Shown here one piece after another: positions 34,475 through 56,873 of a stretch of DNA of 64,000 nucleotides (position 1 is its first letter; each line of letters opens with the position of its first letter). Source of the DNA: an uncultured euryarchaeote (GTDB taxonomy: Archaea; Thermoplasmatota; Poseidoniia; Poseidoniales; Poseidoniaceae). The notes below the pieces were generated by a model that saw only the letters and a program-made list of their open reading frames with translations, was not told the origin of the DNA and did no database searches. The stretch covers positions 1,891 through 65,890 of the forward strand of contig CAXCCF010000004.1 of NCBI GenBank assembly GCA_963981035.1, written 5' to 3'. Both the position numbers and the translations under genes were made by a program.

Positions 34475-34500
34475 CTAATCTCACAGTTTGAGGCGGAATT

Positions 34501-35136: not shown

Positions 35137-35187
35137 GTCTCTTGAAAAGTCGGGTCAACACTCATAAAGGAGTGCTCCTATGGCTGT

Positions 35188-36585: not shown

Positions 36586-36674
36586 TTTGACTCATTTCAA
36601 AGACCCCTCAAATGGCTATTTCAGCCAGTAAATGAAGCGAGGGATTGAAAGGTAGTTGGGCGCGCATCCGACAT

Positions 36675-38390: not shown

Positions 38391-38394
38391 AAAA

Positions 38395-39459: not shown

Positions 39460-39474
39460 AATTGAGGATTGAAT

Positions 39475-39792: not shown

Positions 39793-39808
39793 TATATTGA
39801 CAATTAAG

Positions 39809-39882
39809 TGGGCTCGAGGGGATTCGAACCCCCGATCAACGCCGTGTAAAGGCGCTGTCATAACCAGCTAGACCACGAACCC
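39809..39882 (-). tRNA. tRNA-Val (anticodon UAC)
   Basis: Reverse complement folds with acceptor GGGTTCG/CGAGCCC (one G-U), anticodon stem GCGCC/GGCGT, loop TTTACAC, T arm GGGGG-TTCGAAT-CCCCT, discriminator A. No intron; CCA not encoded. Confidence 0.9.
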
Positions 39883-39965
39883 GTGTTCCACCCCTATGGC
39901 AAGGGGTTTTTCAACTAACCGCATCGCCACTAACCTCAAAACCATTCAACGCTAGCCCTGTATAT

Positions 39966-40667: not shown

Positions 40668-40736
40668 ACGATTCCATAACCAATTGTAATTTCTTTGTCG
40701 CACTGCTTATGTGCATCCGATGTCACCTTCGTCAAT

Positions 40737-42374
40737 ATGGGTGGTGATGCAGCAGATATCTGGCAGCATTTGGCCAGCCGAAAGATAATGCTATTGAAAT
40801 CGATGAAGCAGGCTGTTCAAGAACTTGCAGACCCTTTTGCTGTATTTTCGCATGCTCAAGAAGTTGGATTTAATTCAGGACTCCTGACACAAGAGATTCT
40901 AGATAAAATGATTACTGCTCACATTACTACACAGAATAATGATTCAACAATCGAAGAAACAAATAAACCAGTTAGTTCTGAAATTAAGCAACGGATTATT
41001 CCCAATACATCAGCGGATGAATTAGGAAGAACAATCGCACCAATTGCTCAGCATGAGCCTTTTGATGTTCGTTTCCGCAATAATCTACCAGATTGGAGTG
41101 TAGATGATTTCAGCGAAAATGCCAGTGATGCTACAAGCGATATCAAAGTTCATTACGACATTACTGGAAACTCGGTTACTGAAGGGAAGATGTCTGATAT
41201 TAATTCCTGTTTTTCCGACCGACTAGAAAAAATTAGAAAAATGATAATTGCAAATTCTAACCTTCCAAAACCACCTCAAGAGATTGCAAGATTAAATTCT
41301 GAATATTCACGTTATCAGGGATATGAAAATACTGCGGTGGCTATCGGTTTAGTAAATGAACCACGTTATACAAAAAATGGCCATCTGATGTGGGGAATTG
41401 AAGATGAATCCGGCGAGATGTTGTGCCTTCTAACCAAGCGACAAGGAGATGATAGGGATAGGGCTCAAGAAATGATACTTGAATCCGGTTTGATGCCCGA
41501 TGATGTATTAGGTGTATCAGGCTCTTTTAGCCAAACTGGAGATATTTTCTATGTATCGGATTTGTTCTTCCCCCTCAAACCAAAACATCAAAAATCAAGT
41601 TCAGAGCATGGAGTCAGTGTAGCATTCCTATCAGATATTCATGTTGGTTCGAAGACATTCTTAGAGGCACAATGGCACAAAATGGTAAGATGGTTTCATA
41701 CCGACCCATTAGCGAAGACAATCAAATATCTCATTTTGTCAGGTGACTGTGTTGATGGAGTAGGAATATATCCTGGACAAGATAAGGAATTAGCGATACC
41801 TGATTTGTATGGCCAATATACAGAATTTGCTAGACTTCTTGAATTATTACCTGAATGGGTTGAATGTGTCATGCTACCAGGAAACCATGATGCTGTTCGT
41901 CCAGCAGAACCGCAACCAACATTTGAAAAGGATATTCAGCAGGATTACAATTCAACCACATTTGTTGGAAATCCTTGTGATTTTTCGTTGAATGGGGTGC
42001 GGGTATTATCTTACCATGGAAAATCAATTGACGATTTCGTTGCCGGTTTGCGAACTGTTACCTATTCCGATCCTGTTGAAGCTATGCGCCAAATGTTGAG
42101 AAGAAGGCATCTTGCACCTCAATGGGGGGGTAAAACTCCACTTTCTCCAGAGCCCGAGGATGGTTTGGTCATTAATGAAGTTCCTGATATTTTTGTAACC
42201 GGACACGTTCATGGACATGCATGCATTGATTTCAAGGGTACAACATTGATTTGTTCAAGCACCTGGCAAGACCAAACATCATACCAGCGAATGCTTGGTT
42301 TCCAACCAAAGCCTTGTATGCTAACGATTGTAAATCTGAAAAGTCATGCTACAACTGCAATTCCATTTGCGTGA
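40737..42374 (+). CDS. polD1: DNA polymerase II (PolD) small subunit DP1
   Basis: Calcineurin-like phosphoesterase motifs FLSDIHVGS, LSGDCVDGVG, LPGNHD, TGHVHGH after an OB-fold region. Track start 40695 is TTG; ATG at 40737. Confidence 0.9.
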   Translation: MGGDAADIWQHLASRKIMLLKSMKQAVQELADPFAVFSHAQEVGFNSGLLTQEILDKMITAHITTQNNDSTIEETNKPVSSEIKQRIIPNTSADELGRTIAPIAQHEPFDVRFRNNLPDWSVDDFSENASDATSDIKVHYDITGNSVTEGKMSDINSCFSDRLEKIRKMIIANSNLPKPPQEIARLNSEYSRYQGYENTAVAIGLVNEPRYTKNGHLMWGIEDESGEMLCLLTKRQGDDRDRAQEMILESGLMPDDVLGVSGSFSQTGDIFYVSDLFFPLKPKHQKSSSEHGVSVAFLSDIHVGSKTFLEAQWHKMVRWFHTDPLAKTIKYLILSGDCVDGVGIYPGQDKELAIPDLYGQYTEFARLLELLPEWVECVMLPGNHDAVRPAEPQPTFEKDIQQDYNSTTFVGNPCDFSLNGVRVLSYHGKSIDDFVAGLRTVTYSDPVEAMRQMLRRRHLAPQWGGKTPLSPEPEDGLVINEVPDIFVTGHVHGHACIDFKGTTLICSSTWQDQTSYQRMLGFQPKPCMLTIVNLKSHATTAIPFA

Positions 42375-42381
42375 GCATATA

Positions 42382-43074
42382 TTATTCAAGACCTAATAGT
42401 GGCCTCAATAAAGTTAGGTCCTTTTCCATGACAATTTCAACCCCTGCCTTTTCAAATGCCATTATTGAAGAATCTCTTGTCGGGTTAAAACCAATAAAAG
42501 TGCTACCTTCAATATGCATACTCAAATCCATTTCAGAATCTCCAACTGATACAATTTTAGAAGTATTAATACCATTCATCTGACATAACTTCTCAATCAC
42601 TTCTCCTTTACCACCTGCATGTAATCGACAAATTCCTTCATTGGTCAAAGAATCGTCTTCAGCGAATTTGAATCCATTCGCAATCCAATCATCTACTTTT
42701 AGCATCGATGCTATTGTTGATACGAAAATATCTACTCCCGCTGATACAATCGCGACAAATACTCCTCGCTGCTTTAATTCTGAAACAAGTTCCCTTGCCC
42801 CAGGCATTAATTTTACACCAGAATATGCTCTAAATAGGTCATCCTTGAAAATAGGGTCTTGTTTCCTTTTCCAAAGTTGGATATCAGAACGCATAAATTC
42901 AACATCACTCAAAACGCCTTCAATAAAAAGTTGTAAATTTTTCCCATTATCTGTTCCGAAATGATCATGAAGAGTCCTCCATGAAGAAATTGCATCAACT
43001 AAGACACCATCACAATCAAAAACAACGCACTCCGGCAAAGTAGCATCGCTGGAATCGTCATTAGTTGCTACCAT
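42382..43074 (-). CDS. HAD-superfamily hydrolase, phosphoserine phosphatase (SerB)-like
   Basis: HAD motif I VFDCDGVLVD, II IVSAG, III/IV GKGEV...VGDSEMD. Track start 43092 is TTG; ATG at 43074. Confidence 0.65.
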   Translation of the reverse strand: MVATNDDSSDATLPECVVFDCDGVLVDAISSWRTLHDHFGTDNGKNLQLFIEGVLSDVEFMRSDIQLWKRKQDPIFKDDLFRAYSGVKLMPGARELVSELKQRGVFVAIVSAGVDIFVSTIASMLKVDDWIANGFKFAEDDSLTNEGICRLHAGGKGEVIEKLCQMNGINTSKIVSVGDSEMDLSMHIEGSTFIGFNPTRDSSIMAFEKAGVEIVMEKDLTLLRPLLGLE

Positions 43075-43179
43075 CTGGCCTCTCCAAGACAAACTAAACG
43101 TTTCTTGTTTGAAAGGCTTCGCAACGTTTGATAATCAAATAGCAGCAAATGCTGAAAAAAGGGGAAGCGAAAAACTGGA

Positions 43180-43259: not shown

Positions 43260-43277
43260 AGAGGGCCGCAGCCCTCT
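43260..43277 (-). terminator. Hairpin AGAGGGC-(4 nt)-GCCCTCT
   Basis: 7-bp GC-rich stem 34 nt downstream of the 4,520-aa gene stop, followed by a pyrimidine-rich TTCCCTCTTGCATTT. Confidence 0.4.
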
Positions 43278-43310: not shown

Positions 43311-46300
43311 TCAAGCCTTCAGGTTGTATGCCAATCCTGTCCATTCCTTGAGGACAGCACCTTGAGCATTTGCCGGAGCATATTTCAAAGTAATTGTGAC
43401 ATCTTCCAAAGGTGTACCATCTGGTGCGTGGGTGCGTACATAGACTTCATCACCAGTGTTGAAGGTAGAAACAGATCTTGTTCCTTCCTTGTTCACTTGG
43501 TCAACGAATGTGACGAATGCGTCACTGTTTGCAGGATTAAACCCGTAAACATCGTTAGTATCGGCCAAATTGGCAGTGTATGTAGCAACAGATCCACTTG
43601 CATCAGTATACATGATACGGACTTCAACAGCTTGGGTTGCCAAGTCTGTTTCAGATTGGCGCACTGAGATTCTCCAGTGTCCATCATCTGCGTCTGAACC
43701 ATTGATATCCTCAATGTCGAAGGTGACTCTTGGGACACCCTTGACATCTGTTTCAGCTAGACTAGAAGCCCACACGTAGATTACACCTGATAGAACCACT
43801 GTGATAGCGACCATTAGAATGGTTGCGATAACAGGGGATACTGCAAGTTCATCTTCTACGATAGTTGCTTCCATTTCTTCCTCATCCTCATCACGGCGTC
43901 CGGAAAGTGCAAGAGCACTTACGAAGATACCTGCAAGGCTCACAGCAATAATGCTAGGAGCGAAGGAAGGAACTGCACCTGCACCGATTGTTCCCACAAC
44001 GGTTGGCAAGTTTTGTCCAGATGCCTCAAAGGTTGAAGATGGCTGGTTAGCGTGAGCACATGTTGCCGCAGTTTCAAGACTGGACATCATGTTGTTACAC
44101 CAATTGCTGTCTTCAAGTAGAGGTCGGCGTTCAGAGGTCTGTGTAGCATTGCTACCGTATTGACCAGGCTTGGACCAATCTGCTCCTTGTTGTCCTTGGT
44201 TGTTAGAACGGTGGGAAGCAGGGGTATCAGTCTGGAAACGATCTGCAGAAGGTGCTAGTATGTCACAAGGGTTTGCCAAACAGGTCTTGACGTCCATCTC
44301 GACCCAAACGTTTGTTGTATCCTTTGTGATGTACACATCTTCAGTTATTGAAACAGATGTTCCGTAAGCTGGTACAGCGTAGTAGCGTGTTTGCTCAACT
44401 TCTGAGTGACCGTCTGTGTGGAAGGTAATCGCCAACATATGGTCGTATGTGTAAGGTCCTTCATCTCCACCAGCAGTTACATCAATAGTTGTTGGCACAT
44501 ATGTACCGGTCATGATGTTAGTAACTCCATTGAAGTTGAATCCTGTGTCTCCACTGAATCCGTAGTCAGCAACTAGTTCACGTACTCTTTCAACACGTAC
44601 ACCAATTTCTTGCGTAGCAACACCTTGCGCATAATCTGCAATAGGCATCAAAGCGGTATCGTAGTTAGGAACATACGATGGTGCAGATGCTGTGTCACGC
44701 AGTACCAAACGGATTTGACAGTAGTCAGATCCAGTCGGTCCGATTTGGTGGATACCGTTGTCGTTCAAGTAATCAATCTCCCAATCAAATCCATTGGTTG
44801 TTGCATCTGGAACTAGGTCCAATACTAAGTCATCACCAACGATTGTTGCTTCGAAGTAGTTACCATATACACACTGGTCTGTTGACTCAATTTGCCAAGT
44901 CAAATCAGCGTCGTTGTGGTCAACGTCGTTCTTCATTGCAGCAAGACTGAAAGTCAAGTTTTCAGCATTGGTATCATCTTCCATAACCGAAAGCTTCCAA
45001 GGGATTGAGTTAACAGATCCATTGTCAGGGTTCACTGAAACAGTTCTTCCTTCATCATCGGTCATTGATGCATTCCAGTCAAGGATGACTGGAGCGTCGT
45101 TAACAGGTGATACTGAGAAATCAACATCAAACACAGTAGCTTCCTGGTTCTCTGCTCCATCATCAGATAGAGTTAGAGAGACAGTACAAGTGCCTCCAAG
45201 TTCGTTGTTTGTGTTCTCAGATAGAACCAATTCGTTGATAGCGTTCACTTCAGCAGAGAAGGCAATACATGTTGTAGGTACAGATGCACCCCATGTGTAG
45301 ACTTGTCTTGTAGGTGATTGCTCGTTAGCCATGTCACGGATGTATGAACGTGTAGCGTTACTTACATCACCTAAGAACTTGGTATGAGAACCGAATCCTT
45401 CTGGTAGGATGTTGTTATACAATTCATCCTCAGAGAACAGAGGCATACAGTTTGCTTCATCGATGTTACAGATCACTGGTGCGTCGTTGACGTTATCAAC
45501 AGTGAATGTAATATTCTTTGAATCAGTTAATCCATTGCTGTCAGTCACTTCGAAGCTGTAGGTCATAATACCAAATTGGTTGTCAAGAGGTGTAATAGTT
45601 ACTTGGTGACCGTTTTGGTTCCAATCTACTAGTACGTTATCGTGAGCAACAACATTGCTTGAAGCAGATGTCCAGGACATTGATGCTTCATCATCTTGCA
45701 CATCATCAGCCATGTTAGTTAGGCTGAAAGTGTAAGCACCTGAGTCTTCGTCGACAGTAATGTCAGCGAGTGATGCTCCAACAACAGGACAAGCACGCTC
45801 CATGTCTAGGTTAACGTTAGCATTGGTTGCCATTGATAGGTCCTCAGTAACTGCCCAGTCATAAGCACAGTCTGCAGAAGTCTTGATCATTACATCGTAG
45901 TCCTTTGCAACACTTGGTGTGCTAGATCCCTTGTATGTGCGGTATACTAGTACTTCATCAGCAATTGAACCAGTTAGCAAGTCATCATGAGTCAACTCAA
46001 CAGTGATATATTCACTGAAGGATTGCAGAGTATTTCCGCTGTCAATTGTTTGAGTTGGGTGAACAGTGCTGACATCAGCAGTGCTTTCACCTTGTACTAT
46101 TGCAACAACATCAATCTGGCTTGGTGTTCCACCCATACGGCTGAATGGTATAGAAATCTCAGCAAAGTTGCCAGAGAAATCTACAGATACAGCGTCCTGA
46201 CTCAATGTAGTTGGTCCCCATCCAAGGAAACCATATGAGTACAGGTCATATGATGAATCACTATCAGCCCATAGAACATAGTTTGCAGGCACAGGTAATG

Positions 46301-49300
46301 TGTGAGCACCGCCCATTCCATTGTATCCAGTTGTTGAACCACTTCCATCAGTACTGATGTAAATCAGTAAGTCTGAGTTAGTTAGATCTTCACCGGTCAA
46401 TCCGAAGTACAAGTTATCTCCTTCAATATATGTCACAGACATGTCATTGGTACCGTCACCGCTCATTACACCTGGCATTGCATATCCAGATGGGTTCAGA
46501 GCGTTTCCACCGTTCCAGTCACTGTCATCACCGTCAACAACCATATTTTCTGGTTGGAAACTTGTGGACACATAGGAAGCACGTGTTCCGTCAGTAGACT
46601 TGATGAGAAGCGCAACTTCATTTGCAGGAGTAGCAGTCAAGTGAGTGCTGTCCATAGAGAAGAGGTTTGCTTCATCAATTGTTGCAGTAGTATCTACAAT
46701 CAACTTCTGGTCATCCAGAGAGTTACCAATTGAAGTGACGTATGCGTTTGCACCTGCATCAATTTGTGTTGTTGATGAAGTCCAAGTCATGTTCTCAACA
46801 GATCCTACTGAATCATCGACCTTCAATGCTGTTGTAGCATCAGCCACTCCACCATCCCAACGGAATGGTGAGTTGACTACGTGTACACCGACATCACCGG
46901 AAGCGTCTAGTGGGTAAACCCAAACTTCAGGTGAATCTTCAACATATAGACCAGTTCCAGAAGTACCACCGTCAACTGCTGCGTTTATTGCAATAACAGT
47001 TGTATCAGTAGCGTGGACACCATAGGAGTCACCAGCAAGTGATGCATCTCCCATTAGGTTGAGTGTACCAGATGGCATATCAACACCAGTGTCATATCCT
47101 GAAACAGTGGTTCCATCCAAAGTGACTGTGTTAACTCCATCAGCAGAATTAATTCCGCTTGTTGAAGTTGAAGAATCACCTGATAGGATTGAACCATCGT
47201 CAACCAGATCACAGTTCTCAAGAACAATTGCATTGTCAGATAATGTGATAGTATTATCTGCAGAGTTAATTGTTACTGATGCGCAATCAACTGCTGAAAT
47301 ACCGATAGCATTAGGAGACAAACGACCAGCGCTTAGTCCAATCGAGTTTCCACTGATATCAGGTCCAGAGTATCCTGCACCACCTGCTGCCTCAAGTGCG
47401 TAGATGTTTGCACCACCGTCACCGTATGTGTCTGTTACCTTGATTGTGTAACTTCCAGCATCAGTGTAGATCTTTAGAGGCGTGTATCCAGTGTTGGATG
47501 AGAATGAACCAGCTGCCCAGGTATCCTTTGTTCCATCAGGCAAGGTAATCTCAATTCCAATCTCTCCACCCCAACTGTCTGTTTCTAGATCGACTGATAG
47601 AGTCTTTCCAGAACCAAGTGTAAAGGTACAAGTCTTGGAATAACTGTAATCATATGAACGGATAGTACATAATGAGCTAGACGGAGCAGGAGGTTGGCTC
47701 ATTGAATCCAACACTATTCCACCATCTGAATCAATTAGTGTGTTATTTGTAACATCACCTTGACCACCATCGATTACGATTCCAGCATGTGCAGATTCGC
47801 CAACACCATTAATCGTATTGTTATCAATCACGAATTCAACACCACTAGTGACTGTGATTCCTTCTTGTGCACCGTTAATGGTGTTTCCAGAAATCTCAGT
47901 TCTCAAGTTCTTACCAGCATATTGTGCGATTGCAGTACCTGATCCACCATTGCTGTTGAATGTGTTACCAGAGATAACTGTATCATCAGAATGAGCGTTT
48001 CGGTAAATCCAAACGTCAGCAATTTCTCCACCATCATTGAAAGTGTTTCCACTAATCGTTAGGTTGTCAGCACCGATATAATCTACTGTGTGATAGCTGT
48101 AGTAAGGAGATCTCTGAGTCATAACACCGACTGCACAGTTGGTGAATGTGTTTCCACTAATTACTCCACCATCTCCACCGCCAAGTGCGATACAAATATC
48201 AGAGTATTGAACTGCGTTGTTTAGTTCTGTATATCCACGGAAGTGAGTGATTTCATTATTGGTAATTGATGTTTCTTCAATTTCCCAATTATAACTATAC
48301 CAGGCACTCTTGTAACCATTCGATGCTGTTATGGTTGAAAGTCCACTAAGTGTTGAATTATCAATAATGAAATTCATTGTGTAGTAGAAATATCCAAGTT
48401 CAACACCCATTGGGCTTCCAGTATCAGGGTTTGTCATCATAGAGTACATTTCACCATCTACCATGTAGAAGGATGATCCGTAAGGTGACTTAGGGTACCA
48501 TCTTTGTGTATCATAGTAAGTGTAACCGCCAGTTGCAAGTAAAGTAGAACCATTGAAACTGTAGTCGTTACCACCATTTAGGTACATGAATGGTACATCT
48601 ATCATTACCGTCTTACTTGACATATCCTTGGCAATTCCACCATAGTAACCATATTCTTTACCGTCGTTAACTCCGTCACCATCAGTATCTACGTTTCGTG
48701 AACCTGCAGTGGATAAGGATCCACTACATTGTGCGACCATAGCGTATGATGTAGATGAGAAGCCATAACAAACACGATCTGTGATTTGATCAACTAGGTC
48801 AACAGACTCACTGTTTCCACTTGCATCAGTTAATGTTGCAGCATGGAATGCATAACGGAAATCCATCAGGTTGTTAGAACTGGAGGTGTAGTAATATGCA
48901 ATCTTAGCGACTGTGGATACTTCGTATCCTGCCAAGCTTGGTACTGTAATTCCAGAACTATCTACTGTGATAGTAGTAAATGTCAATCCACTTACTTGAC
49001 CACTGGAATCAGTAATTCCTGTTCCAGCAGCAGCACCTGAAGCATCCAAGAGGTTAACTGTTGCACCTGAAACTACATTTGTATCTGCAGTTAATGTTAC
49101 AGCTAGTTCTCGCATTCTGGTAAATAATCCACTTCCAGTTACTTCAACTGAATTGCTATCCACAGTTCCTTCGATGAAGTCAACTGCAGCGGAACCAGTA
49201 ATCACGACATCCTTGGTATTACCAAGTGTGACATCGGTCATTGTAATAGTTCCTGTACCAGCGGTTTCAATACCTATGGCGTTATTTGCAATTGATACAC

Positions 49301-52300
49301 TATCAAAGGCTATATCTCTAGCTGATAATGCGCCATACTTGAATGCCGCTCCAGCAGAGTTAGTAACCGTTCCAGACAAATCACCAGTAATATCCTTGAC
49401 ATAGTATACACCAGCGGATGTTTGTCCGTTAAGGTCCAAATTCAACAAATCAATAGAACCAGATGCAGATGTTCCCGCAAGTACACCGTATGTACCTCCT
49501 GAAACATCGAATCCATCTACTGCTGCTGCAGTCTGTCCAACTATTTCCATTCCAGAGTTTGTAGGGCTTGTGACCTCTACATTTTGGAAGTTACCAGCGG
49601 CAAATGCGCCACCGATTTCAACACCTGTGTCTGCACCAGTAATTTGTCCATCCTTGAATAGAGCTGTACCGGATTCACGGACATAGTTTCCTAGATCACC
49701 TGGGTCGTTACCACTGCGTGCAACAAAGTCCAATCGGTCTTGGTAGTTGTCAGCACGGTTGTGCAGAACATCCATCCAAAGTGTGACCTTGGTAATGTTA
49801 CTTGCTGAGATATCCACTGTAGGGAATGTCAAACGTGCACCTTGTCCAGCATTCATGTAGTATGAGTATGCGTAATCAAGACAGATGTTGTAGCTACCAA
49901 ACAATCCGTTATATCCTTCAGGTGGCTTGAATACACCTTGGCCTCCATGAGAGGAGGTGTAGTAGTATCCCCAGTAATGGTATGGGTAGTATGAAGCACT
50001 GCCTGTTGGAGTAACTCCATCGATGTTTTCCCAGTCAAATCCAAATTGTGGAGGTGAACTGTAGTAACCAGGATAGCCCGGGTTAGATTGAGGACCGCCT
50101 GGCCAATAATACCACAGGTAGTACATGTATCCATCTTGGGTAGCTGAATTCGGACTGTTAGGTCCGTATGAATAACCGTAGTAGTTACAGTTGTAGGACG
50201 GTGCTCCACCAACTCCACCATCATAGGCAGCAGCATAGCCACTACCAGATGCTGGGTCTGCAGCACTGTATGGGTAATATCCAAGATCTGCGGAATCAGT
50301 AATGTTCCAGGAGTTACCTGCGTCATCTTCCAACTCGATGTTGTATCGGTCAGTCATCATGTAATACTTGCTTGTTGCATAGTTGTATAGCGGGTGAGCG
50401 TTACCGCCACCATAGATACTGTTTGCACCAACTTGCAAGTAGTCACCTGTTCCTAGATATGTAGATAAGTCAATTCCGTATGTTTCCCAACCTGTTGCCT
50501 TGCCACTCAATAGAGTAGAGCGATAGATTGTTGGAAGTGACATTCCACCATATACGTCCACACCTACTGTGTTGTCAGTTGAAGTGAATCCATTGACTTG
50601 AGGTGCGCCATTGTAGGCTTGAATACCTACTGCTGCGTTCTTAACAATAATATTGTTAATGTTTCCACCAGCTTGTTCAACCCAAAGTGCTGTACCAGTG
50701 TTACCAGTATTGATGATTGAAGAATCATCAACTGAAATTGTACCACCATCTACCTTGACTGTAGCCATTTCATCAGATGATGCTGATGCACCATAGATAA
50801 GACCGTTATTCATCATGGTAAGTGTTGCACCATCGCCAACTAGTATTGCAGAGTTGGTTGTTGCATCTTGTGCAACATCACGAACTTCACCGCCATCAAT
50901 CTCTAATGTACCGCCATCTTGAATGTCAAGATGTAGGCCATAGGTTGAGGTCATTGCCTTTAGTGAACCAACTGCTCCAGTATCAACTGAAGTTGTTACA
51001 ATTAATTTACCACCATTGCTCAAAGTAAGAACTGGTGAATTTGTTGCTGAACTCTTAACCTTCATTACTGAACCTAGTAGTTCGATGGTACATCCATCAA
51101 GTGTTAGGTCAGCAGAAATGGTCATTGGTGTACTATCGAATGAATAGACACCTGAACCCACTGGAGATTCCATTACACTAAGAGTAGCGTTTTGGGCAAT
51201 CCATGCACAATCCATTCCAGCTTGATCGAAATCAACAGGTGCTGGTTCAAGAAGCAAATCAATGCTGCTACCGATGTTAAAGTCTCCAGAAGATGGATAC
51301 CAAGAATCAGCAGTCATTGTTTCATTCTGACCGGCAGGTCCGAAAGCACGAATGTTGTGGTCTGAATAGGTGTTTCCGTTAGAGTCACCTGTGACAACCC
51401 AAATGTTTGCTTGACCATTAGTATCAGTGAGGTGGGAACCAACTTCAAAGAGTTCGCTTCCGCTACCATCAACAACTGATGCTGAGACTGTGTGTCCAGA
51501 CTTCCAAACCTGAGTTTGCACAGGAGGAGTTCCAACCAAAGCCATTCGGTATGTTGCTGCTTGAGCAAGACCACCGAACCAGATAGTTGCTGAAGATGCA
51601 GCATCCCAGTCACAGTTTCCTGTGTCACCAGTATTATCTGCACAATCGTTTCCATCTTGTGTTACATCAATCAATGAGATCTGAGCATTTGTACTTGCCT
51701 TAGCAAGATAAATTGTCCCAGTACCTGCAGTTGTACTTGTAATTGTAGTTTCACCAACAGTCATCTTTGTGTTACGTGCATATAGAGCAGATGTAACAGA
51801 ATTTGTGTGAGTGATTGTACCATCAGATACTACAACTGTGTTAGGTGCTGCACTGCTTGAACATGAACTGTATACGAGTTCTGCATTTAGTGCATCAGCA
51901 TTGACATTCCATCCACAACCAGACAATTGGAATGTTCCAACTGCAAAGTTAGATAGTTCAAGTTGATCGGTTGTTATTGCATTTCCATTGATACTTACAT
52001 CGCCTGCATTAATATCTGTAAAGATACTTGGATGCATACGATTCATCTGAATGTCACCGGATGTTAGTGTGTCAATAACTGCATTTGCACCAGAAGGTCC
52101 AGCTGCAGTACTTGATGCACCACCAGGAGTAATTGCTAGATTAGCACTTCCTAGATCAACATCAATCATGCTAATCGAACCGATTGCGTCAATTGATGCA
52201 GAACTGTAAGCATCAGCATCAAAGTTGTATAGAACAACTTCTGAACCTGCTCCAGCATCTGAACCGATTGCCTTTCCAGTTTGTCCACTCGCTGTGGTTG

Positions 52301-55300
52301 CTGTAACGTTAGATACGGTAACCATTGAGAAATCAACATCAATTAGGTTCACATAGGAATTAGTAATTGTTGTATTCTCTAAGAATAGTGCACCTGCAGT
52401 TGAACCTGCTGATGAACCATCTGCGACAACAATCGCTCCACCCCAGGAATTTCCTGCGGTGTTACAATCCTTCATTGAACCTTCAGTCAAAGTTGCAACA
52501 GTGTCTTCTGCGAAGTTGAAACATGCTGTGTTAGATGTACTTCCTTCAACGCTGAATCCATTCATTGTTACTACGGTACCTTGTCCGCTACCATGCTCGA
52601 AAGCTACAGCGACATTCTTGAAGGTAACTTCACTCATTGTGAAGTTTCCAACAGGTGCATTAGTTGATGGCGTTGAGCCATGACGGCTTCCTGCTGCAAT
52701 TGCTGCTTCAGAGGTATTAACGAAATCAACGTATGAGAACTGGTGGCGGTCATCAGTTCCTGTAGAACAAGAATCTGTGAACGCTATTCCTTTCCATGTT
52801 GCTCCAGCCTGACCTTCGATCTTGATGTGGTCTGTTACGTTTCCATTAGCTGTTAGTGAATCACAAGCGCCGTCAAAGGAAATACCCTTTCCGGATGCGA
52901 CTTGGATTACTACACCAGGCTCAATGTTCAAATTAGCCGAGATTGACAAGTAGTCATTCGATGGGCTAATTCTAATTGGGCTGTCGGAAATATCCCAAGT
53001 TGTGTCTACAGTAATATCGGACTCAACATCAGTACCCTTTCCTTCAAATGGCATTGTACGGTAATATACACCACAGTCAACAGATGTTGTCTTGTAACAA
53101 TAGTATGAACCATATCCACCATAGTTTGGTGCAAGAGTATTTGTCTTGACATAGTAATTATTACTTGGCATTTCAGGAGGTACTGCGTAATATGAACCCA
53201 TACTTCTGTAAGTACTTGTACTGCCAGAATTAATCAGCTGCATAATTCCTTGACGGCTGATATGGATTCTATCATTACTGTCTGAACCATTGAATTCTGT
53301 ACCAAAGTATTCGAATGCGAATCCTTCAGGGATGTCAATGTTTGCTGCACACTTGGCCTTGTAGTTGTTGAAGTAATATGCGCAATAATATGCAGACGGG
53401 TTACCATTTGAAGCACCTGTTAATGCTGCTTGTGCATTAGCCAAGCCCTTTATTCCAAGGTCAAAGGTCTCATGACCGTTTGACGTAGATGATGTAGAAA
53501 TACGGTAGTTGTTAGAGAAGATGTTAGCACCTGCGGTGTAACTTCCTGAACCAATACGCAGAGTTTCTCCCTTTGTACGTGTACTATCTTGATATCCGGT
53601 CATCATATAATCGAAGTAGAATCCACAATTTGTATCATATTTGAACTCAACTTCATTAGTGACGTCATACATTACTACTTGGTAAGTACAAAGGTAACTG
53701 TTTGTGTATCCCATGTCTCTCCATTCAATAATTAACATCTTGTTAGGGTCACCAACTTCGAATGAGTTTGTTGCTGAAGTTACTGAGTTAATGCCTGAAG
53801 ATGCTGTACTAGTATCTTCTGCAGTCATGTAATATTCATATGAATTTCCACGCTCAAGGCCTGCAATTTCATAACTCCATGTACAAGCAGAATCAGCACA
53901 TTGTGCTCTTGTTTTACCAGACTGTTGTGTCATTGAACCGGATGTCCAAGTTGTTGTACCGACTTCACGGTAATACAATGTAGGACCTACTCCGGCAGCT
54001 GTACTGACATTCAATCCAGCTGGTGGATCTCCTGCATCAGTAAGTGTTACGGAAACAGTTCTGTCCTTACTGTGGGAATCAGCAAGTGCTGTATGATCCA
54101 TAGTAGGTGCAAAGGTATCTGGTTGAGGTGCAACCAGTCCAACCTTATACGTTACAGTACCTGTAGATGCTTGTTGTCCATAGTATCCTACTGACATTGC
54201 AAATCCAGACCATTTGTAGGTAGTGATACTTTGGTATGCTCCGAAGTAATAGTATGCAGAATTACAGCGACCTGTTCCAGAATATGTTCTGTAGAAGTAA
54301 TACGCTCCGTTATCTGTTACACAAAGCATGTTAGCAGATGTTGTGCTTCCTGTTGCATTGAAATTGAATTTACCAAATGAACCAGTGAAACCGCCTGGGA
54401 TCGCGATTTTGTAGGCTTTATTGTATCCATATCCAGATGAATAGGTTGCTGAATCTCCACCAGACAAAGCCTTGTCGATTGTTAGAGAAGTGCTTGATGT
54501 TGCCTTATCTCCAAGACCGACCATTGCCCATGCGTTAGAAGAACTGTCATACAGCATAATCAAACTGTATTGTGGTCCATTCTTTGCTGCAATTGTGAGG
54601 TATCCGTTGTCATCCTTGTGAAGTTGGTCAATTCCTGAACGTGTTCCACCAATTCCATTGTAACCAGTTGATGGAGCAGTTGTCCACTGTGTAAGCCAGT
54701 TAGCATAGAAATAGTAGGAAGTTGTATAGAAACATGATTGTGTACCTGTACCACAACTTGATGTGTCAAATTCGAATACGTATTCGTCACTTCCGTCGTA
54801 GTAGGTCATTTGACGATCAAGGACATTTGGATAGTTATATCCTCCGCCACTTACGTCAGTTGTTAGAACAGTCATTTTCTTTGTAGTTCCTGCATCAACA
54901 ACATCTTCTACTGCAAAGTAGTAAGGTGTCGGAGTTGTTTGTGAACCAGTTGTTGCAGGCTCATATCCAACGTTAGCACCGTTGCTTCCTTGGTTTAGAT
55001 CTTGGAACTTCCAGTAGTATTCAAGGTAATCACCTGCATCTACTGAAGGTGTTGTAGCCTTGAATCTGCAATTTGAAGAAGTTGAAGAACAAGTTCCGAT
55101 AGAAGTAGCGGATACGCTGGACCATGTTCCATTATTCATAGAATAGTGTAGAGTAGGTCCATTAGCGGATGTTGTATCAATACCAGACATATCTGAAAGA
55201 GTTGTAAAGAATGTTCTTGGCCCTTCATGATAAGAAGTAATTCCAGAATATGGTGCGAAGTCAGCTGTAGGTGCATCTGCATCTGTACCACCTGAGTAAA

Positions 55301-56873
55301 CTATTTGGATATAGGAGTTAGATGAACCACCTGTGTACGCGTAAGTATATGCGTAAACGTTTGACATCATTCTTGCTCCCAATCCGACAGTACCACTATT
55401 GGTTTGAGCGGATGTAATGTATCCTGCTGCTGTCGAAGAAGAACATGTTGTAGCTGAAGTACAAATTTCTGCTGTCTTCCATCCAGTTCCTTGGCTGTAA
55501 GTATCATAAGATGCGGAGTTCCAAATTGAGGATTGCATCTTTCGTGCTTGTGTTCCACCGTAGTTCACACCCAATGTTGAGCTAAATGCTCCTGAACATG
55601 ACGCAGTAGATACCGCGTGATTCCACTTAGGGTCAGTACCACATTGTTCCATCACTGTTGCTGTAAGGGATGAGGTTGAACTGCTACCATATCCATAAGA
55701 AATATATTGCTTCCACTTGATTGAATCAATAGTAGCACCAGACGGTAATGCATGGTTGCTTGTGAATGTGTACTTGTTCCAAGGCAGATAGTATATTGTG
55801 CTGTAGTATCTGTAAAGGTAGCGGTAAGATGAACCGTAACAGTATGCGTAGTATACGTAACAATATCCACCATTATTGGATGTGACCTTAATTGTAGGGT
55901 CAATAGCTAGTGGGAAGACTCTGTCTTCTGAAAGTAACCAATCTGTATCAACAGCAGTGGTCAAAACGATCAAAGAGCCATATGCTTGTACAAAGTATGT
56001 AGCAACATATGGTTCCTCTGCGTTTTCTTCAATTACCATAGGAACTGGGAATGAAACTAATAATTCACCGGTTTCTGTGTTACGTACTTGAAGTTCTTCT
56101 TGAGTTTGTGTGATTGCCTCGTCAACGAGAGTGTCACCAATGTATAGAGAATATCCAGCAGGCAGTTGTACTGCTTCTGAAAATCCTAACCAGGCTGCAT
56201 TAGGCTGAAGCACAGGGCGCTCGCGGATTACGAGGTTCTGCTTCAATTGTGATGACTCGACTGTGTAATCCAAGTCAAAACCTTGTGCTACTGGGTATCG
56301 AATAACATTTCCACCGACAGTTGGAGCCTCGTTAGAAGGTTCAACCATTAATGGCATTGGCGCCTCACCTGATTCATCAATGGTTACAACTGTTGGGTTG
56401 ATACCGGTGATGATAGGATCGACGAATTGACTGGTTTGAACTCGGACTCCACCAGCAACTTCTGCAGCAAATTCTGCTGTGAAGGTGTTCTTGGTGACTT
56501 CCCAGCCGTTTGCTGTTGCAACGACGTTCAAGTCAATTTCATCCCATACTCCATCGTCTTGAAGGTAGTTGATTGGCTCGTTAGCAATTAACTGAGCAAT
56601 CTTACCATCTTCTGTGACGTAAGCTTTGGTCATTTGGTCTCTCATTCCCTTGAGCTCAAGGGCTTGGTCATATTCATAGTCTGTGTCTTCAATGGTATCA
56701 GGTAGCTTGAAGAAGTCTTCTGACTCTTCAGTAGCGTCAACGAAATCAATTTCGCCAACGTTATTTGTTACGAATCCACTCATTGGCATTAACGCCATAA
56801 GCAGACACAGTAACAGTGCCACTCCAATTCCACCAAGGACAGACTTTTGTGTTGTTTTCTTTGTTCCCAACAT
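43311..56873 (-). CDS. Giant surface protein / putative adhesin (4,520 aa): signal anchor, DNRLRE-like N-terminal region, many right-handed beta-helix (PbH1-like) repeats, Tyr-rich segments, cadherin-like VNDAPV modules, PGF-CTERM-like TM anchor, then an in-frame pilin-like module
   Basis: Uninterrupted 13.56-kb ORF. ATG 56873 has GAGGTGA 7 nt upstream. Signal GGIGVALLLCLLMALMP. ISGNTF(T/N)...ISGNTINGAQEGI...IDNNTINGVG beta-helix repeats (about 47700-48290). FTVDNVNDAPVI / SPVNDAPVIL (about 45085-45520). TM SIIAVSLAGIFVSALAL. Confidence 0.8.
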   Translation of the reverse strand: MLGTKKTTQKSVLGGIGVALLLCLLMALMPMSGFVTNNVGEIDFVDATEESEDFFKLPDTIEDTDYEYDQALELKGMRDQMTKAYVTEDGKIAQLIANEPINYLQDDGVWDEIDLNVVATANGWEVTKNTFTAEFAAEVAGGVRVQTSQFVDPIITGINPTVVTIDESGEAPMPLMVEPSNEAPTVGGNVIRYPVAQGFDLDYTVESSQLKQNLVIRERPVLQPNAAWLGFSEAVQLPAGYSLYIGDTLVDEAITQTQEELQVRNTETGELLVSFPVPMVIEENAEEPYVATYFVQAYGSLIVLTTAVDTDWLLSEDRVFPLAIDPTIKVTSNNGGYCYVYYAYCYGSSYRYLYRYYSTIYYLPWNKYTFTSNHALPSGATIDSIKWKQYISYGYGSSSTSSLTATVMEQCGTDPKWNHAVSTASCSGAFSSTLGVNYGGTQARKMQSSIWNSASYDTYSQGTGWKTAEICTSATTCSSSTAAGYITSAQTNSGTVGLGARMMSNVYAYTYAYTGGSSNSYIQIVYSGGTDADAPTADFAPYSGITSYHEGPRTFFTTLSDMSGIDTTSANGPTLHYSMNNGTWSSVSATSIGTCSSTSSNCRFKATTPSVDAGDYLEYYWKFQDLNQGSNGANVGYEPATTGSQTTPTPYYFAVEDVVDAGTTKKMTVLTTDVSGGGYNYPNVLDRQMTYYDGSDEYVFEFDTSSCGTGTQSCFYTTSYYFYANWLTQWTTAPSTGYNGIGGTRSGIDQLHKDDNGYLTIAAKNGPQYSLIMLYDSSSNAWAMVGLGDKATSSTSLTIDKALSGGDSATYSSGYGYNKAYKIAIPGGFTGSFGKFNFNATGSTTSANMLCVTDNGAYYFYRTYSGTGRCNSAYYYFGAYQSITTYKWSGFAMSVGYYGQQASTGTVTYKVGLVAPQPDTFAPTMDHTALADSHSKDRTVSVTLTDAGDPPAGLNVSTAAGVGPTLYYREVGTTTWTSGSMTQQSGKTRAQCADSACTWSYEIAGLERGNSYEYYMTAEDTSTASSGINSVTSATNSFEVGDPNKMLIIEWRDMGYTNSYLCTYQVVMYDVTNEVEFKYDTNCGFYFDYMMTGYQDSTRTKGETLRIGSGSYTAGANIFSNNYRISTSSTSNGHETFDLGIKGLANAQAALTGASNGNPSAYYCAYYFNNYKAKCAANIDIPEGFAFEYFGTEFNGSDSNDRIHISRQGIMQLINSGSTSTYRSMGSYYAVPPEMPSNNYYVKTNTLAPNYGGYGSYYCYKTTSVDCGVYYRTMPFEGKGTDVESDITVDTTWDISDSPIRISPSNDYLSISANLNIEPGVVIQVASGKGISFDGACDSLTANGNVTDHIKIEGQAGATWKGIAFTDSCSTGTDDRHQFSYVDFVNTSEAAIAAGSRHGSTPSTNAPVGNFTMSEVTFKNVAVAFEHGSGQGTVVTMNGFSVEGSTSNTACFNFAEDTVATLTEGSMKDCNTAGNSWGGAIVVADGSSAGSTAGALFLENTTITNSYVNLIDVDFSMVTVSNVTATTASGQTGKAIGSDAGAGSEVVLYNFDADAYSSASIDAIGSISMIDVDLGSANLAITPGGASSTAAGPSGANAVIDTLTSGDIQMNRMHPSIFTDINAGDVSINGNAITTDQLELSNFAVGTFQLSGCGWNVNADALNAELVYSSCSSSAAPNTVVVSDGTITHTNSVTSALYARNTKMTVGETTITSTTAGTGTIYLAKASTNAQISLIDVTQDGNDCADNTGDTGNCDWDAASSATIWFGGLAQAATYRMALVGTPPVQTQVWKSGHTVSASVVDGSGSELFEVGSHLTDTNGQANIWVVTGDSNGNTYSDHNIRAFGPAGQNETMTADSWYPSSGDFNIGSSIDLLLEPAPVDFDQAGMDCAWIAQNATLSVMESPVGSGVYSFDSTPMTISADLTLDGCTIELLGSVMKVKSSATNSPVLTLSNGGKLIVTTSVDTGAVGSLKAMTSTYGLHLDIQDGGTLEIDGGEVRDVAQDATTNSAILVGDGATLTMMNNGLIYGASASSDEMATVKVDGGTISVDDSSIINTGNTGTALWVEQAGGNINNIIVKNAAVGIQAYNGAPQVNGFTSTDNTVGVDVYGGMSLPTIYRSTLLSGKATGWETYGIDLSTYLGTGDYLQVGANSIYGGGNAHPLYNYATSKYYMMTDRYNIELEDDAGNSWNITDSADLGYYPYSAADPASGSGYAAAYDGGVGGAPSYNCNYYGYSYGPNSPNSATQDGYMYYLWYYWPGGPQSNPGYPGYYSSPPQFGFDWENIDGVTPTGSASYYPYHYWGYYYTSSHGGQGVFKPPEGYNGLFGSYNICLDYAYSYYMNAGQGARLTFPTVDISASNITKVTLWMDVLHNRADNYQDRLDFVARSGNDPGDLGNYVRESGTALFKDGQITGADTGVEIGGAFAAGNFQNVEVTSPTNSGMEIVGQTAAAVDGFDVSGGTYGVLAGTSASGSIDLLNLDLNGQTSAGVYYVKDITGDLSGTVTNSAGAAFKYGALSARDIAFDSVSIANNAIGIETAGTGTITMTDVTLGNTKDVVITGSAAVDFIEGTVDSNSVEVTGSGLFTRMRELAVTLTADTNVVSGATVNLLDASGAAAGTGITDSSGQVSGLTFTTITVDSSGITVPSLAGYEVSTVAKIAYYYTSSSNNLMDFRYAFHAATLTDASGNSESVDLVDQITDRVCYGFSSTSYAMVAQCSGSLSTAGSRNVDTDGDGVNDGKEYGYYGGIAKDMSSKTVMIDVPFMYLNGGNDYSFNGSTLLATGGYTYYDTQRWYPKSPYGSSFYMVDGEMYSMMTNPDTGSPMGVELGYFYYTMNFIIDNSTLSGLSTITASNGYKSAWYSYNWEIEETSITNNEITHFRGYTELNNAVQYSDICIALGGGDGGVISGNTFTNCAVGVMTQRSPYYSYHTVDYIGADNLTISGNTFNDGGEIADVWIYRNAHSDDTVISGNTFNSNGGSGTAIAQYAGKNLRTEISGNTINGAQEGITVTSGVEFVIDNNTINGVGESAHAGIVIDGGQGDVTNNTLIDSDGGIVLDSMSQPPAPSSSLCTIRSYDYSYSKTCTFTLGSGKTLSVDLETDSWGGEIGIEITLPDGTKDTWAAGSFSSNTGYTPLKIYTDAGSYTIKVTDTYGDGGANIYALEAAGGAGYSGPDISGNSIGLSAGRLSPNAIGISAVDCASVTINSADNTITLSDNAIVLENCDLVDDGSILSGDSSTSTSGINSADGVNTVTLDGTTVSGYDTGVDMPSGTLNLMGDASLAGDSYGVHATDTTVIAINAAVDGGTSGTGLYVEDSPEVWVYPLDASGDVGVHVVNSPFRWDGGVADATTALKVDDSVGSVENMTWTSSTTQIDAGANAYVTSIGNSLDDQKLIVDTTATIDEANLFSMDSTHLTATPANEVALLIKSTDGTRASYVSTSFQPENMVVDGDDSDWNGGNALNPSGYAMPGVMSGDGTNDMSVTYIEGDNLYFGLTGEDLTNSDLLIYISTDGSGSTTGYNGMGGAHTLPVPANYVLWADSDSSYDLYSYGFLGWGPTTLSQDAVSVDFSGNFAEISIPFSRMGGTPSQIDVVAIVQGESTADVSTVHPTQTIDSGNTLQSFSEYITVELTHDDLLTGSIADEVLVYRTYKGSSTPSVAKDYDVMIKTSADCAYDWAVTEDLSMATNANVNLDMERACPVVGASLADITVDEDSGAYTFSLTNMADDVQDDEASMSWTSASSNVVAHDNVLVDWNQNGHQVTITPLDNQFGIMTYSFEVTDSNGLTDSKNITFTVDNVNDAPVICNIDEANCMPLFSEDELYNNILPEGFGSHTKFLGDVSNATRSYIRDMANEQSPTRQVYTWGASVPTTCIAFSAEVNAINELVLSENTNNELGGTCTVSLTLSDDGAENQEATVFDVDFSVSPVNDAPVILDWNASMTDDEGRTVSVNPDNGSVNSIPWKLSVMEDDTNAENLTFSLAAMKNDVDHNDADLTWQIESTDQCVYGNYFEATIVGDDLVLDLVPDATTNGFDWEIDYLNDNGIHQIGPTGSDYCQIRLVLRDTASAPSYVPNYDTALMPIADYAQGVATQEIGVRVERVRELVADYGFSGDTGFNFNGVTNIMTGTYVPTTIDVTAGGDEGPYTYDHMLAITFHTDGHSEVEQTRYYAVPAYGTSVSITEDVYITKDTTNVWVEMDVKTCLANPCDILAPSADRFQTDTPASHRSNNQGQQGADWSKPGQYGSNATQTSERRPLLEDSNWCNNMMSSLETAATCAHANQPSSTFEASGQNLPTVVGTIGAGAVPSFAPSIIAVSLAGIFVSALALSGRRDEDEEEMEATIVEDELAVSPVIATILMVAITVVLSGVIYVWASSLAETDVKGVPRVTFDIEDINGSDADDGHWRISVRQSETDLATQAVEVRIMYTDASGSVATYTANLADTNDVYGFNPANSDAFVTFVDQVNKEGTRSVSTFNTGDEVYVRTHAPDGTPLEDVTITLKYAPANAQGAVLKEWTGLAYNLKA
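43314..43874 (-). other. Archaeal type IV pilin-like module (class III signal peptide + DUF1628-like globular part, 187 codons), in frame with and possibly separable from the 4,520-aa ORF
   Basis: From the internal ATG (43874-43872): MEATIVEDELA|VSPVIATILMVAITVVLSGVIYVWASSL... followed by ~145 beta-rich residues. The purine-rich GATGAGGATGAGGAAGAA directly upstream is SD-like. Confidence 0.6.

Follow-up and report, generated by a model that had tools for sequence, protein, structure and literature searches.

The locus described here raises the question of why the gene of a giant archaeal surface protein should run on, in a single reading frame, into a pilus subunit, and of what would become of that subunit in the cell. 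The gene lies in a window of 64,000 nucleotides, the whole stretch analysed here, from an uncultured euryarchaeote of the family Poseidoniaceae. The Marine Group II archaea (Poseidoniales), which dominate the archaeal plankton of the surface oceans, are uncultured. Their surface structures are known just from gene lists, and attachment to particles is thought to be central to their ecology (PMC6461757).

The re-reading of the sequence bore out the initial annotation of a 4,520-aa open reading frame with a pilin-like tail, an internal ATG, and no stop codon at the junction of the two parts (Table 1). The C-terminal region runs from VPSFAPS through a transmembrane helix, GRR, and a 16-aa acidic linker to A/VSPV (the slash marks the predicted cleavage site) and a beta-sandwich of ~147 aa. 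The stop codon of the frame is found at 43311-43313, with none between the anchor and the pilin-like part, and the gene covalently ties a giant surface protein to a pilus subunit.

Table 1. Features of the giant gene and its surroundings, in window coordinates.
Feature	Position	Strand	Basis
Whole gene, giant surface protein fused to pilin (4,520 aa)	43311..56873	(-)	ORF call; full-length orthologues agree
N-terminal signal or signal-anchor MLGTKKTTQKSVLGGIGVALLLCLLMALMPMSGFV	56769..56873	(-)	Basic n-region followed by hydrophobic core, read from the sequence
Weak tandem-95-type repeat, residues 3706-3803	45465..45758	(-)	NCBIfam NF012211
VPSFAPS motif, first transmembrane helix (TM1), and GRR, residues 4301-4327; stop-transfer anchor	43893..43973	(-)	Conservation
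Acidic linker, 16 aa, residues 4328-4343; predicted cytoplasmic loop	43845..43892	(-)	Length and identity profile
Internal ATG, Met4334	43872..43874	(-)	Position not conserved
Ala4344, predicted -1 residue of the prepilin-peptidase site A/VSPV	43842..43844	(-)	Invariant; motif alignment
Pilin N-terminal hydrophobic helix, residues 4345-4373	43755..43841	(-)	Pilin_N and TIGR02537 match; conservation
Pilin globular beta-sandwich domain, residues 4374-4520	43314..43754	(-)	AF2 model, Foldseek, exhaustive library search
GC-rich hairpin, 7 bp (AGAGGGC-TGCG-GCCCTCT), then T-rich tract	43260..43277	(-)	Read from the sequence; 34 nt past the stop

The fusion is real, and forms one single translated frame. 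The junction lacks a stop codon in all 83 of the related loci that include it, with the frame extended upstream in each case; 80 of these loci come from species-representative genomes, 79 of which carry archaeal titles (Poseidoniales, Poseidonia, Euryarchaeota, Methanobacteriota, or Thermoplasmatota). The same uninterrupted junction is found in full-length proteins of 2,785-5,559 aa. Dozens of proteins from metagenomes share it, with identities as low as about 35%, and a protein from an unrelated JGI sample (P0001) is 97% identical across it. Full-length orthologues of 4,372-5,559 aa have both the N-terminal signal and the C-terminal junction of the window protein. The initial annotation had left room for an assembly error or a lost stop codon, and a pseudogene in one genome would be a further artefact of this kind. 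No point in support of such an artefact was found, and the independent loci, the full-length proteins, the junction of P0001, and selection at the protein level refute it, which makes it vanishingly improbable. Judged by the comparison of the sequences, the fusion has been maintained by purifying selection in the whole of Marine Group II, and the gene is one of the largest in their genomes, conserved throughout the order. Full-text literature searches and the archaeal T4P census yielded no account of a pilin module located internally or at the C-terminus, in agreement with the initial annotation, which knew of no described adhesin-pilin fusion in the archaea, and a search of the literature for the helix peptide as a text string found nothing. 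The order-wide retention of this layout suggests that these archaea make or dock a pilin in a way that has yet to be described.

A number of apparent exceptions were rejected. The proteins P0002, P0005, P0006, P0038, and P0044 looked like free-standing orthologues but, in the case of P0005 and P0038, the DNA has an open upstream frame that continues to the end of the contig. The apparently split gene at L089 is broken by a run of N within the scaffold, and the short matches on very long contigs are frameshifted fragments, probably derived from error-prone assemblies. The 182-183-aa “type IV pilins” called in GenBank at this locus are miscalls, which lie in frame with an upstream open frame that reaches the contig end.

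The C-terminal part of the protein is a complete type IV pilin of the Pilin_N type, including the c-region of the family leader and the Ala(-1)/VSPV site. The last 187 aa, in which the initial annotation had recognized a pilin N-terminus, match Pfam PF07790 (Pilin_N) with an E of 5.4e-11 and 43.6 bits (cut-off 25.2), and TIGR02537 with an E of 3.2e-9 and 36.1 bits (cut-off 20). Both families are still above their cut-offs when the entire 4,520-aa protein is scanned, Pilin_N being the single Pfam family detected along its whole length, and the pilin motif occurs only once in the six frames of the window. The globular part, which had been described as beta-rich, takes this form in an AlphaFold2 model of the C-terminal region (mean pLDDT 70.9), in which a helix at positions 26-52 (TM1) and a second helix at positions 68-94 (the pilin helix) are followed by ten beta strands with a pLDDT of around 80. 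The best Foldseek matches in the PDB are archaellins (5z1l, 9eq7, and 7ofq), a Cuniculiplasma filament subunit (8rey), and FlaF, the soluble domain of which (4p94) was matched with an E of 2.4e-3. Among the PDB sequences, the closest is that of PilA2, a filament subunit of Haloferax volcanii (8FJ5), in an alignment of about 60 residues that begins in the leader (NDDSA/VSPVIG), spans the hydrophobic helix, and includes the shared motif DDxA/VSPVI, which makes the last residues of the linker the counterpart of the c-region of the class III leader of Pilin_N. No sequence similarity to PilA2 was detectable in the globular domain. In an exhaustive library search, this domain was found essentially only at the C-terminus of proteins of 2,785-5,559 aa, the few exceptions being weak matches of an Ig-like domain in proteins other than pilins. 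A trait of the family that is lacking here is a short N-terminal class III leader (typically 6-12 aa), given that the site follows residue 4,344, and has a giant ectodomain, a transmembrane helix, and the 16-aa acidic loop upstream of it.

Conservation is concentrated in the predicted cleavage site and the helix. In 81 unique DNA sequences, Ala(-1) is invariant through the use of four different codons, with a variable position -2, and this alanine and the next 29 residues are 98-100% invariant, with freely varying synonymous sites and a variable remainder of the linker. The mean pairwise identity of the helix is 0.98 among 76 orthologues, once again with free synonymous variation. An invariant Ala(-1) and helix, together with a variable linker, fit a peptidase site plus a core-packing helix, and exceed the needs of a plain anchor. 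The helix is also nearly identical to that of a free-standing Poseidoniaceae pilin (P0121), which has an AGGAGG site and a stop codon of its own, and begins with the 10-aa leader MKNENMNDEA/VSPV.

The linker is 15-19 aa long in most loci, and has the lowest identity of the region (0.49). An ATG is found within it in most loci, and the clade of the window has either ATG or TTG at this position, the latter codon replacing the internal ATG in L005, L007, L008, and L009. The initial annotation had considered a nested gene, in which the pilin would also, or only, be made separately by internal initiation, with the purine-rich Asp/Glu codons serving as a ribosome-binding site. GAGGA sequences are indeed present 4-12 nt upstream of the ATG of the window, some genes here, like that of the free-standing pilin, use Shine-Dalgarno sites, and GenBank calls its 182-183-aa pilin from the linker ATG, even though that call lies in frame with the open frame upstream. 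This reading is weakened, however, by the position of the ATG, which shifts between -11, -7, and -2 according to the clade, and would leave a leader of merely two residues at -2. Internal initiation is not general, given that the linkers of nine loci (L060, L066, L069, L070, and L072-L076) lack ATG, GTG, and TTG alike. The Shine-Dalgarno-like purine tract is simply the unavoidable by-product of the GAx codons of Asp and Glu, no TATA-like element was seen by eye upstream, and the entropy of the synonymous sites of the linker gave no clear sign of the extra constraint that an overlapping DNA-level element, such as an internal ribosome-binding site or promoter, would impose. Overall, a nested gene appears improbable.

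The segment upstream of the linker is itself well conserved. In 77 unique DNA sequences, S-F-A-P-S, Gly+12, Leu+18, and R-R are invariant or nearly so, and the mean pairwise identity of the anchor is 0.76, in comparison with 0.61-0.65 for the ectodomain. This three-part shape of motif, hydrophobic helix, and Arg-Arg resembles that of the PGF-CTERM substrates of archaeosortase A, large surface proteins with a P-[GS]-F-type motif, a hydrophobic helix, and a cluster of Arg close to their end, and a literal PGF is found in the most divergent members of the family (APGFLPS in P0213 and TPGFVPS in P0206). The segment might, in this case, be an internal archaeosortase-like signal, at which the adhesin would be cut and lipid-anchored, either alone or after cleavage by a prepilin peptidase, but the probability of this is low. 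The HMMs of the sorting signals (PGF-CTERM/TIGR04126 and relatives) gave nothing at E<=10 for the window anchor, and the best scores of the divergent anchors, both in P0206, are 7 bits for TIGR04126 (E 4.8) and 14.3 bits for Heimdall-CTERM, which has a cut-off of 24. The segment is also internal, rather than C-terminal, with 193 residues downstream of the Arg-Arg (the acidic loop and 177 more residues), and its motif is absent from the other C-terminally anchored Poseidoniales proteins compared. No archaeosortase was seen in the window, and the literature search found no paper connecting archaeosortases with Marine Group II.

The initial annotation had also proposed a polyprotein, processed by a prepilin peptidase, a sortase-like enzyme, or both. 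The sortase-like part of this proposal has no support from the HMMs, and the cleavage by a prepilin peptidase is the most plausible reading of the locus, albeit a tentative one. The enzyme would cut the cytoplasmic loop to give an anchored adhesin and one pilin, and the gene would encode a single precursor with two functional parts. In the topology envisaged, the N-terminal signal would drive the ~4,300-aa ectodomain across the membrane until SFAPS-TM1-RR halts the transfer, which would leave the acidic loop in the cytoplasm, and the pilin helix would then re-insert in an N-in/C-out orientation, leading to the export of the beta-sandwich. A peptidase of the PibD/FlaK type, at the cytoplasmic face of the membrane, would cleave after the invariant Ala, with TM1 and the loop acting as an oversized class III leader. 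The cut would leave a giant surface protein with a TM-RR-acidic tail, as seen also in its window neighbours, and would release a single mature pilin for each adhesin. The released pilin may join the filament of the free-standing pilin, with which it has the hydrophobic helix in common, as a low-copy (minor or priming) subunit, and the adhesin would be produced beside the assembly of the pilus. It is possible, although still more conjectural, that the prepilin peptidase acts here as a polyprotein processor, in which an internal class III signal behind a stop-transfer helix yields a giant adhesin with a type IV pilin next to it, at 1:1, with the pilin then priming or capping an adhesive filament of the free-standing pilin that has the same helix.

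Several lines of evidence favor this cleavage. The cut made by prepilin peptidases is on the cytoplasmic side of the membrane, and the helix stays with the mature protein (PMC4187195), in keeping with where the loop is predicted to lie. An archaellum-type operon, proposed to serve adhesion, is present in all the MGIIa genera and half of the MGIIb genera (PMC6461757), and a T2SSF platform gene is found about 9 kb from one divergent orthologue. Cleavage is further supported by the Pilin_N and TIGR02537 scores above the curated cut-offs, the alignment with PilA2 that begins inside the leader of the latter, the predicted helix and beta-sandwich, as in the archaeal filament subunits, the absence of a stop from every junction and from the full-length proteins, and the recurrence of the helix in a genuinely free-standing pilin. 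The cleaved adhesin would also have a TM-RR-acidic end, which is that of a 1,042-aa neighbour in the window.

Other features count against cleavage. Known class III leaders sit at the N-terminus, and the -2 and -3 positions of the archaellins are usually basic, whereas the loop here is strongly acidic. No class III leader is known to contain a transmembrane helix, nor is the leader of any prepilin peptidase substrate. These leaders are also short, often 6-12 aa (PMC4187195).

The gene neighbours in the window encode a HAD hydrolase, the PolD small subunit, CinA, aRF1, FTHFS, and flotillin, and the same synteny is found in L001 and L002. The initial annotation had noted no gene for the ATPase, the platform, or the prepilin peptidase of a pilus in the window, and the window ORFs scanned (all but the 3,040-aa ORF at 15138-24260) gave no Pfam match to any of these, the peptidase being sought as A24. 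Upstream of the divergent orthologue mentioned above, which is high in GC, the T2SSF gene is accompanied by two small ORFs that resemble pilins by eye. No peptidase, ATPase, or platform gene lies beside the gene in the Marine Group II loci examined, a point against cleavage, and a GxGD-motif scan of all the related loci for a peptidase returned chance matches only.

The main rival to cleavage, and a less probable one, is that TM1 and the pilin helix, joined by the loop, would remain uncut as a permanent membrane anchor of two helices, with the beta-sandwich staying on the cell surface as a docking domain. This domain might bind the envelope, like FlaF, or be a terminal, non-extractable subunit at the base of the pilus, tying the giant protein to the type IV machinery. 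The greater conservation of TM1 and SFAPS, in comparison with the ectodomain, fits specific helix-helix packing, and could equally reflect a permanent packing of TM1 with the second helix. A persisting link is also the easiest explanation for a covalent fusion across the whole order, given that, if the two parts were separated, the maintenance of a fusion rather than an operon would be hard to explain. The lack of precedent for a leader with a transmembrane helix, and the match to the soluble domain of FlaF, point in the same direction. FlaF is pilin-derived, remains in the membrane, and binds the S-layer, but has no class III signal (PMC4425475). The present module has kept both the leader c-region and Ala(-1), and these are invariant. 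A mere anchor would not need a helix kept identical to that of the free-standing pilin, and the solved archaeal pilus structures (PMC10334743) imply that an uncleaved N-terminal extension would be unfit for the filament core, except in the last basal subunit. If the protein is cleaved, the substrate range of the prepilin peptidases would widen to internal sites after a transmembrane helix, and the locus would represent a new way of coupling the biogenesis of adhesin and pilus; if it is not, it would be a new pilin-derived membrane anchor. Polyprotein processing, if true, would also provide the first internal class III signal peptide, and would physically connect giant adhesins with type IV filaments in the archaea that are the most abundant of the surface ocean.

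The adhesion pilins PilA1-6 of Haloferax volcanii belong to the same Pfam family (Pilin_N/DUF1628), and have the same build of helix and beta-sandwich. This pilin set reportedly has one common, invariant helix, a situation similar to the sharing of the helix observed here. The Haloferax pilins are, however, free-standing, about 145-165 aa long, and have a short leader at the N-terminus, whereas the present module starts at residue 4,334 of 4,520, and its “leader” contains a transmembrane helix. The archaellum stators FlaF/FlaG (ArlF/ArlG) also have an N-terminal hydrophobic helix and an Ig-like beta-sandwich, and stay in the membrane, but FlaF is encoded, unfused, in the archaellum operon, and the giant gene lies outside this operon. 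The coupling of a large adhesive module to a type IV filament is found in the bacterial modular type IV pilins (e.g., Streptococcus sanguinis PilB/PilC), PilY1, and the archaeal DUF2341 proteins. The modular pilins carry the pilin module at the N-terminus, with the extra domain behind it, and removal of the leader frees the end of the helix. This order is reversed in the giant protein, which has a membrane hairpin between the two parts, while the PilY1-type adhesins are not fused to a pilin. The archaeal T4P loci also encode large putative adhesins (PMC4858521).

The databases already contain full-length copies of the giant protein, named automatically as [quoted passage not shown], and the JGI auto-annotation refers to them as “FlaG/FlaF family flagellin”. 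Given these 4,500-aa “flagellins” and the false 183-aa “type IV pilin” genes, the counts of pilins and archaellins in surveys of Marine Group II are probably distorted.

The ectodomain would be exported via Sec, judging from the N-terminal signal, which is also kept in P0178 and P0182. Searches of Pfam, NCBIfam, and the PDB sequences for its function returned nothing except the weak tandem-95 repeat (NF012211, E 2.9e-8 and 33.6 bits, under its cut-off of 90), which is the sole non-pilin HMM signal in the ectodomain. The 4,520-aa adhesin of the initial annotation stands as a giant surface protein with a pilin module, for which “adhesin” is an inferred label, no adhesion domain having been detected beyond this weak match. 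Past the 3' end of the gene, the hairpin and T-rich tract are a possible terminator.

The last 187 residues of the giant surface protein score 43.6 bits against Pfam Pilin_N (cut-off 25.2; E 5.4e-11) and 36.1 bits against TIGR02537 (cut-off 20), a match far beyond chance, and the initial annotation was accurate in placing an in-frame pilin module behind the membrane anchor of a 4,520-aa protein. Pilin_N is the sole Pfam family across the whole protein, in which the remaining HMM signal is a weak tandem-95 repeat (residues 3706-3803), and no further pilin-type helix was found in any reading frame of the window. The protein begins with a basic, then hydrophobic, signal (MLGTKKTTQKSVLGGIGVALLLCLLMALMP...), and past the junction, where a transmembrane helix (TM1), Arg-Arg, and an acidic linker lead to Ala4344 (position -1) and the pilin helix (VSPV...), it runs approximately 140 residues further to the stop codon.

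The closest solved relative in a family profile search is the PilA2 pilus subunit of Haloferax volcanii (8FJ5, E 4e-12; PMC10334743). The alignment starts within the PilA2 leader (NDDSA|), which makes the end of the linker (V-D/E-D-D/E-x-A) the counterpart of a class III signal peptide's c-region. In the AlphaFold2 model (mean pLDDT 70.9, ~80 in the globular part), two helices are followed by a ten-strand sandwich; Foldseek ranks archaellins, the Cuniculiplasma filament subunit, and FlaF as its top matches. A pilin that truly stands alone is also encoded in Poseidoniaceae (P0117, P0118, and P0121; 165-166 aa), preceded by a stop and a strong AGGAGG site and with MKNENMNDEA|VSPV as its leader; its 33-residue helix is nearly identical to that of the fused module, whereas its globular domain is different. 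At L085 (10001-10498), as at L086-L088, this gene adjoins several glycosyltransferase genes, not pilus-assembly genes. Weak homologues of the fused globular domain (34-39% identity) lie mid-protein in non-pilins of 250-575 aa (P0190, P0195, P0199, and P0191), all four of which end in ...GLPSIG-TM-RR, three with an N-terminal signal, so the domain is not exclusive to pilins.

The search with the 187-aa tail matched 1,665 proteins, including many fragments with the upstream anchor in frame, down to ~45% identity, and scanning prokaryotic genomes, one for each species, recovered at least 538 relatives. The best 80 of these loci belong to MAGs that, with one exception titled Verrucomicrobiales, are labelled Poseidoniales, Poseidoniaceae, Poseidonia, or Euryarchaeota/Methanobacteriota/Thermoplasmatota. 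Together with L001-L003, they form a set of 83 loci that include the junction, none of which has a stop codon there, and the upstream frame is open for at least 3,434 codons where the flanking DNA permits. When 1.84 billion representative proteins were searched exhaustively for the globular domain with HMMER, there were 44 matches only; the long ones are proteins of 2,785-5,559 aa with the domain at the extreme C-terminus, and all of these long proteins share the motif-TM-RR-acidic-DDExA|VSPV junction. The suggestion of a lost stop codon or an assembly error is therefore rejected. No orthologue of the fused module was seen as a separate gene among the related loci and proteins; the seeming split at L089 is a gap in a scaffold.

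One archaeal fusion gene (L062, NZEQ01000026.1; 73% identity) lies on a contig of the MAG labelled 'Verrucomicrobiales bacterium', most likely a binning error. On very long contigs (up to 615 kb), the module occurs solely as short frameshifted fragments (P0069, P0078, P0090, P0096-P0098, P0100, P0102, P0104, P0110, and P0111), which may reflect uncorrected long-read indels rather than real truncations.

Across the 81 distinct DNA sequences of the junction, Ala(-1) and the next 29 residues are 98-100% invariant, and their codons vary freely (entropy up to ~2 bits). The mean pairwise identity among 76 orthologues is 0.61-0.65 in the ectodomain, 0.76 in the PSF motif, TM1, and RR, 0.49 in the linker, 0.98 in the pilin helix, and 0.63 in the globular domain; within the last 577 residues of the protein, the helix is thus under the strongest constraint. 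Translation might start within the linker, as a pilin gene nested in frame, and GenBank annotation does call the linker Met as a start in L001-L003. The linker ATG, however, shifts between positions -11, -7, and -2, the linker contains no ATG, GTG, or TTG at all in nine loci, and the SD-like purines are Asp/Glu codons; internal initiation is thus not general, and is very unlikely.

Also invariant are the SFAPS motif, two TM1 residues (a Gly and a Leu), and Arg-Arg. The SFAPS segment has the shape of a sorting signal, and the most divergent family members (P0213 and P0206) read PGF-x-PS in its place. This PGF form is compatible with sortase-type processing at the motif, part of the splitting proposed initially, but no sorting-signal HMM matches the SFAPS-TM1-RR segment and the motif is not common to other anchored proteins, which leaves such processing very unlikely too.

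The signal peptide would place the ectodomain outside, TM1 with Arg-Arg would halt transfer, the acidic loop would be cytoplasmic, and the pilin helix would re-insert, exporting the sandwich. Given this topology, Ala|Val would lie at the cytoplasmic face; prepilin peptidases cut at the cytoplasmic membrane face (PMC4187195). Cleavage of the junction by such a peptidase is tentatively favoured, because the cleavage motif has been kept without variation whereas the positions next to it vary, and because the helix has stayed identical to the free-standing pilin's, implying common machinery or a common filament core, which an N-terminally extended subunit cannot enter. The cut adhesin would also end TM-RR-acidic, as the 1,042-aa neighbour does, and the 1:1 ratio with the giant protein would suggest a low-copy pilin rather than a major one. 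The main rival, an uncleaved hairpin that serves as an anchor or dock, is possible though less likely: TM1 is conserved, the covalent fusion persists, and FlaF provides a precedent, but FlaF lacks a class III signal (PMC4425475).

Features of the window and of the related loci L001-L003
Feature	Position	Strand	Remarks
Giant surface protein ORF	43311-56873	minus	4,520 residues, ends TGA
S-F-A-P-S motif (S4303-S4307)	43953-43967		outer edge of TM1; invariant in 77 unique DNA sequences, loci L001-L084
Possible terminator	43260-43277	minus	7-bp GC-rich hairpin then T-rich tract, 34 nt past giant-gene stop
879-aa large surface-protein ORF	12502-15141	minus	4-nt overlap with next ORF
3,040-aa large surface-protein ORF	15138-24260	minus	4-nt overlap with 879-aa ORF
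Miscalled 'type IV pilin', L001	3612-4160		start at linker Met
Miscalled 'type IV pilin', L002	2136-2687		start at linker Met
Miscalled 'type IV pilin', L003	827-1378		start at linker Met

These L001-L003 calls, of 182-183 aa in GenBank MAG records, are rejected as free-standing pilins, since their frames are open upstream for 275 to 1,203 more codons, reaching the contig end, and they represent C-terminal ends of the giant gene. A 4,578-aa database entry bears an automatic name only, and other copies are auto-named "FlaG/FlaF family flagellin", a name that JGI gives to fragments of 1,700-4,200 aa; pilin and archaellin counts in surveys of Marine Group II (MGII) may be affected. Full-text literature searches and the archaeal T4P census yielded no account of a pilin module at an internal or C-terminal position, in line with the initial remark that no such archaeal adhesin-pilin fusion is known to have been described. 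The protein's parts belong to known kinds; what is new is how they are arranged, with a class III signal placed behind a giant ectodomain and a transmembrane helix, an architecture maintained across an order.

Upstream of the giant gene lie the 1,042-aa anchored surface protein and an FtsX-type permease, and downstream are HAD hydrolase, PolD small subunit, CinA, tRNA-Val, aRF1, formate-THF ligase, and flotillin, the last discussed as an MGII aggregation factor (PMC6461757). The hairpin may be a transcription terminator between the giant and HAD hydrolase genes. Distant orthologues keep this downstream gene order: HAD, PolD small subunit, CinA, aRF1, formate-THF ligase, and flotillin (34220-43092) correspond to L001 4326-13051, in distant MGII lineages. 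As initially noted, no pilus ATPase, platform protein, or A24 peptidase gene was recognized by Pfam in the scanned ORFs of the window (the 3,040-aa ORF excluded). Every MGIIa genus and half of those in MGIIb are reported to have an archaellum-type operon, with a proposed role in adhesion (PMC6461757). At L090, a divergent high-GC orthologue locus, two small ORFs that look pilin-like by eye and a gene for a T2SSF platform protein lie ~9 kb upstream, a suggestive arrangement, although a single case.

On the 3.0-Mb contig of this locus (GC 0.66), a ~4,375-aa fusion protein is encoded at least twice, with mutual identity above 90%, at L090 (2.47-2.50 Mb) and L091 (1.01-1.05 Mb), with P0217 listed as a third member. 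Their flanks are only partly alike, with a cupredoxin domain in each, and they may represent either genuine paralogy or duplication in the assembly. In the window, the 879-aa and 3,040-aa ORFs each end in a TM helix and a long cytoplasmic tail, acidic and rich in Trp (e.g., ...DDEGTEWWEDDSGTWWYRLPGEDDWEEWTD), which may be a shared cytoplasmic docking motif; a similar tail is found in the unrelated 707-aa protein P0184.
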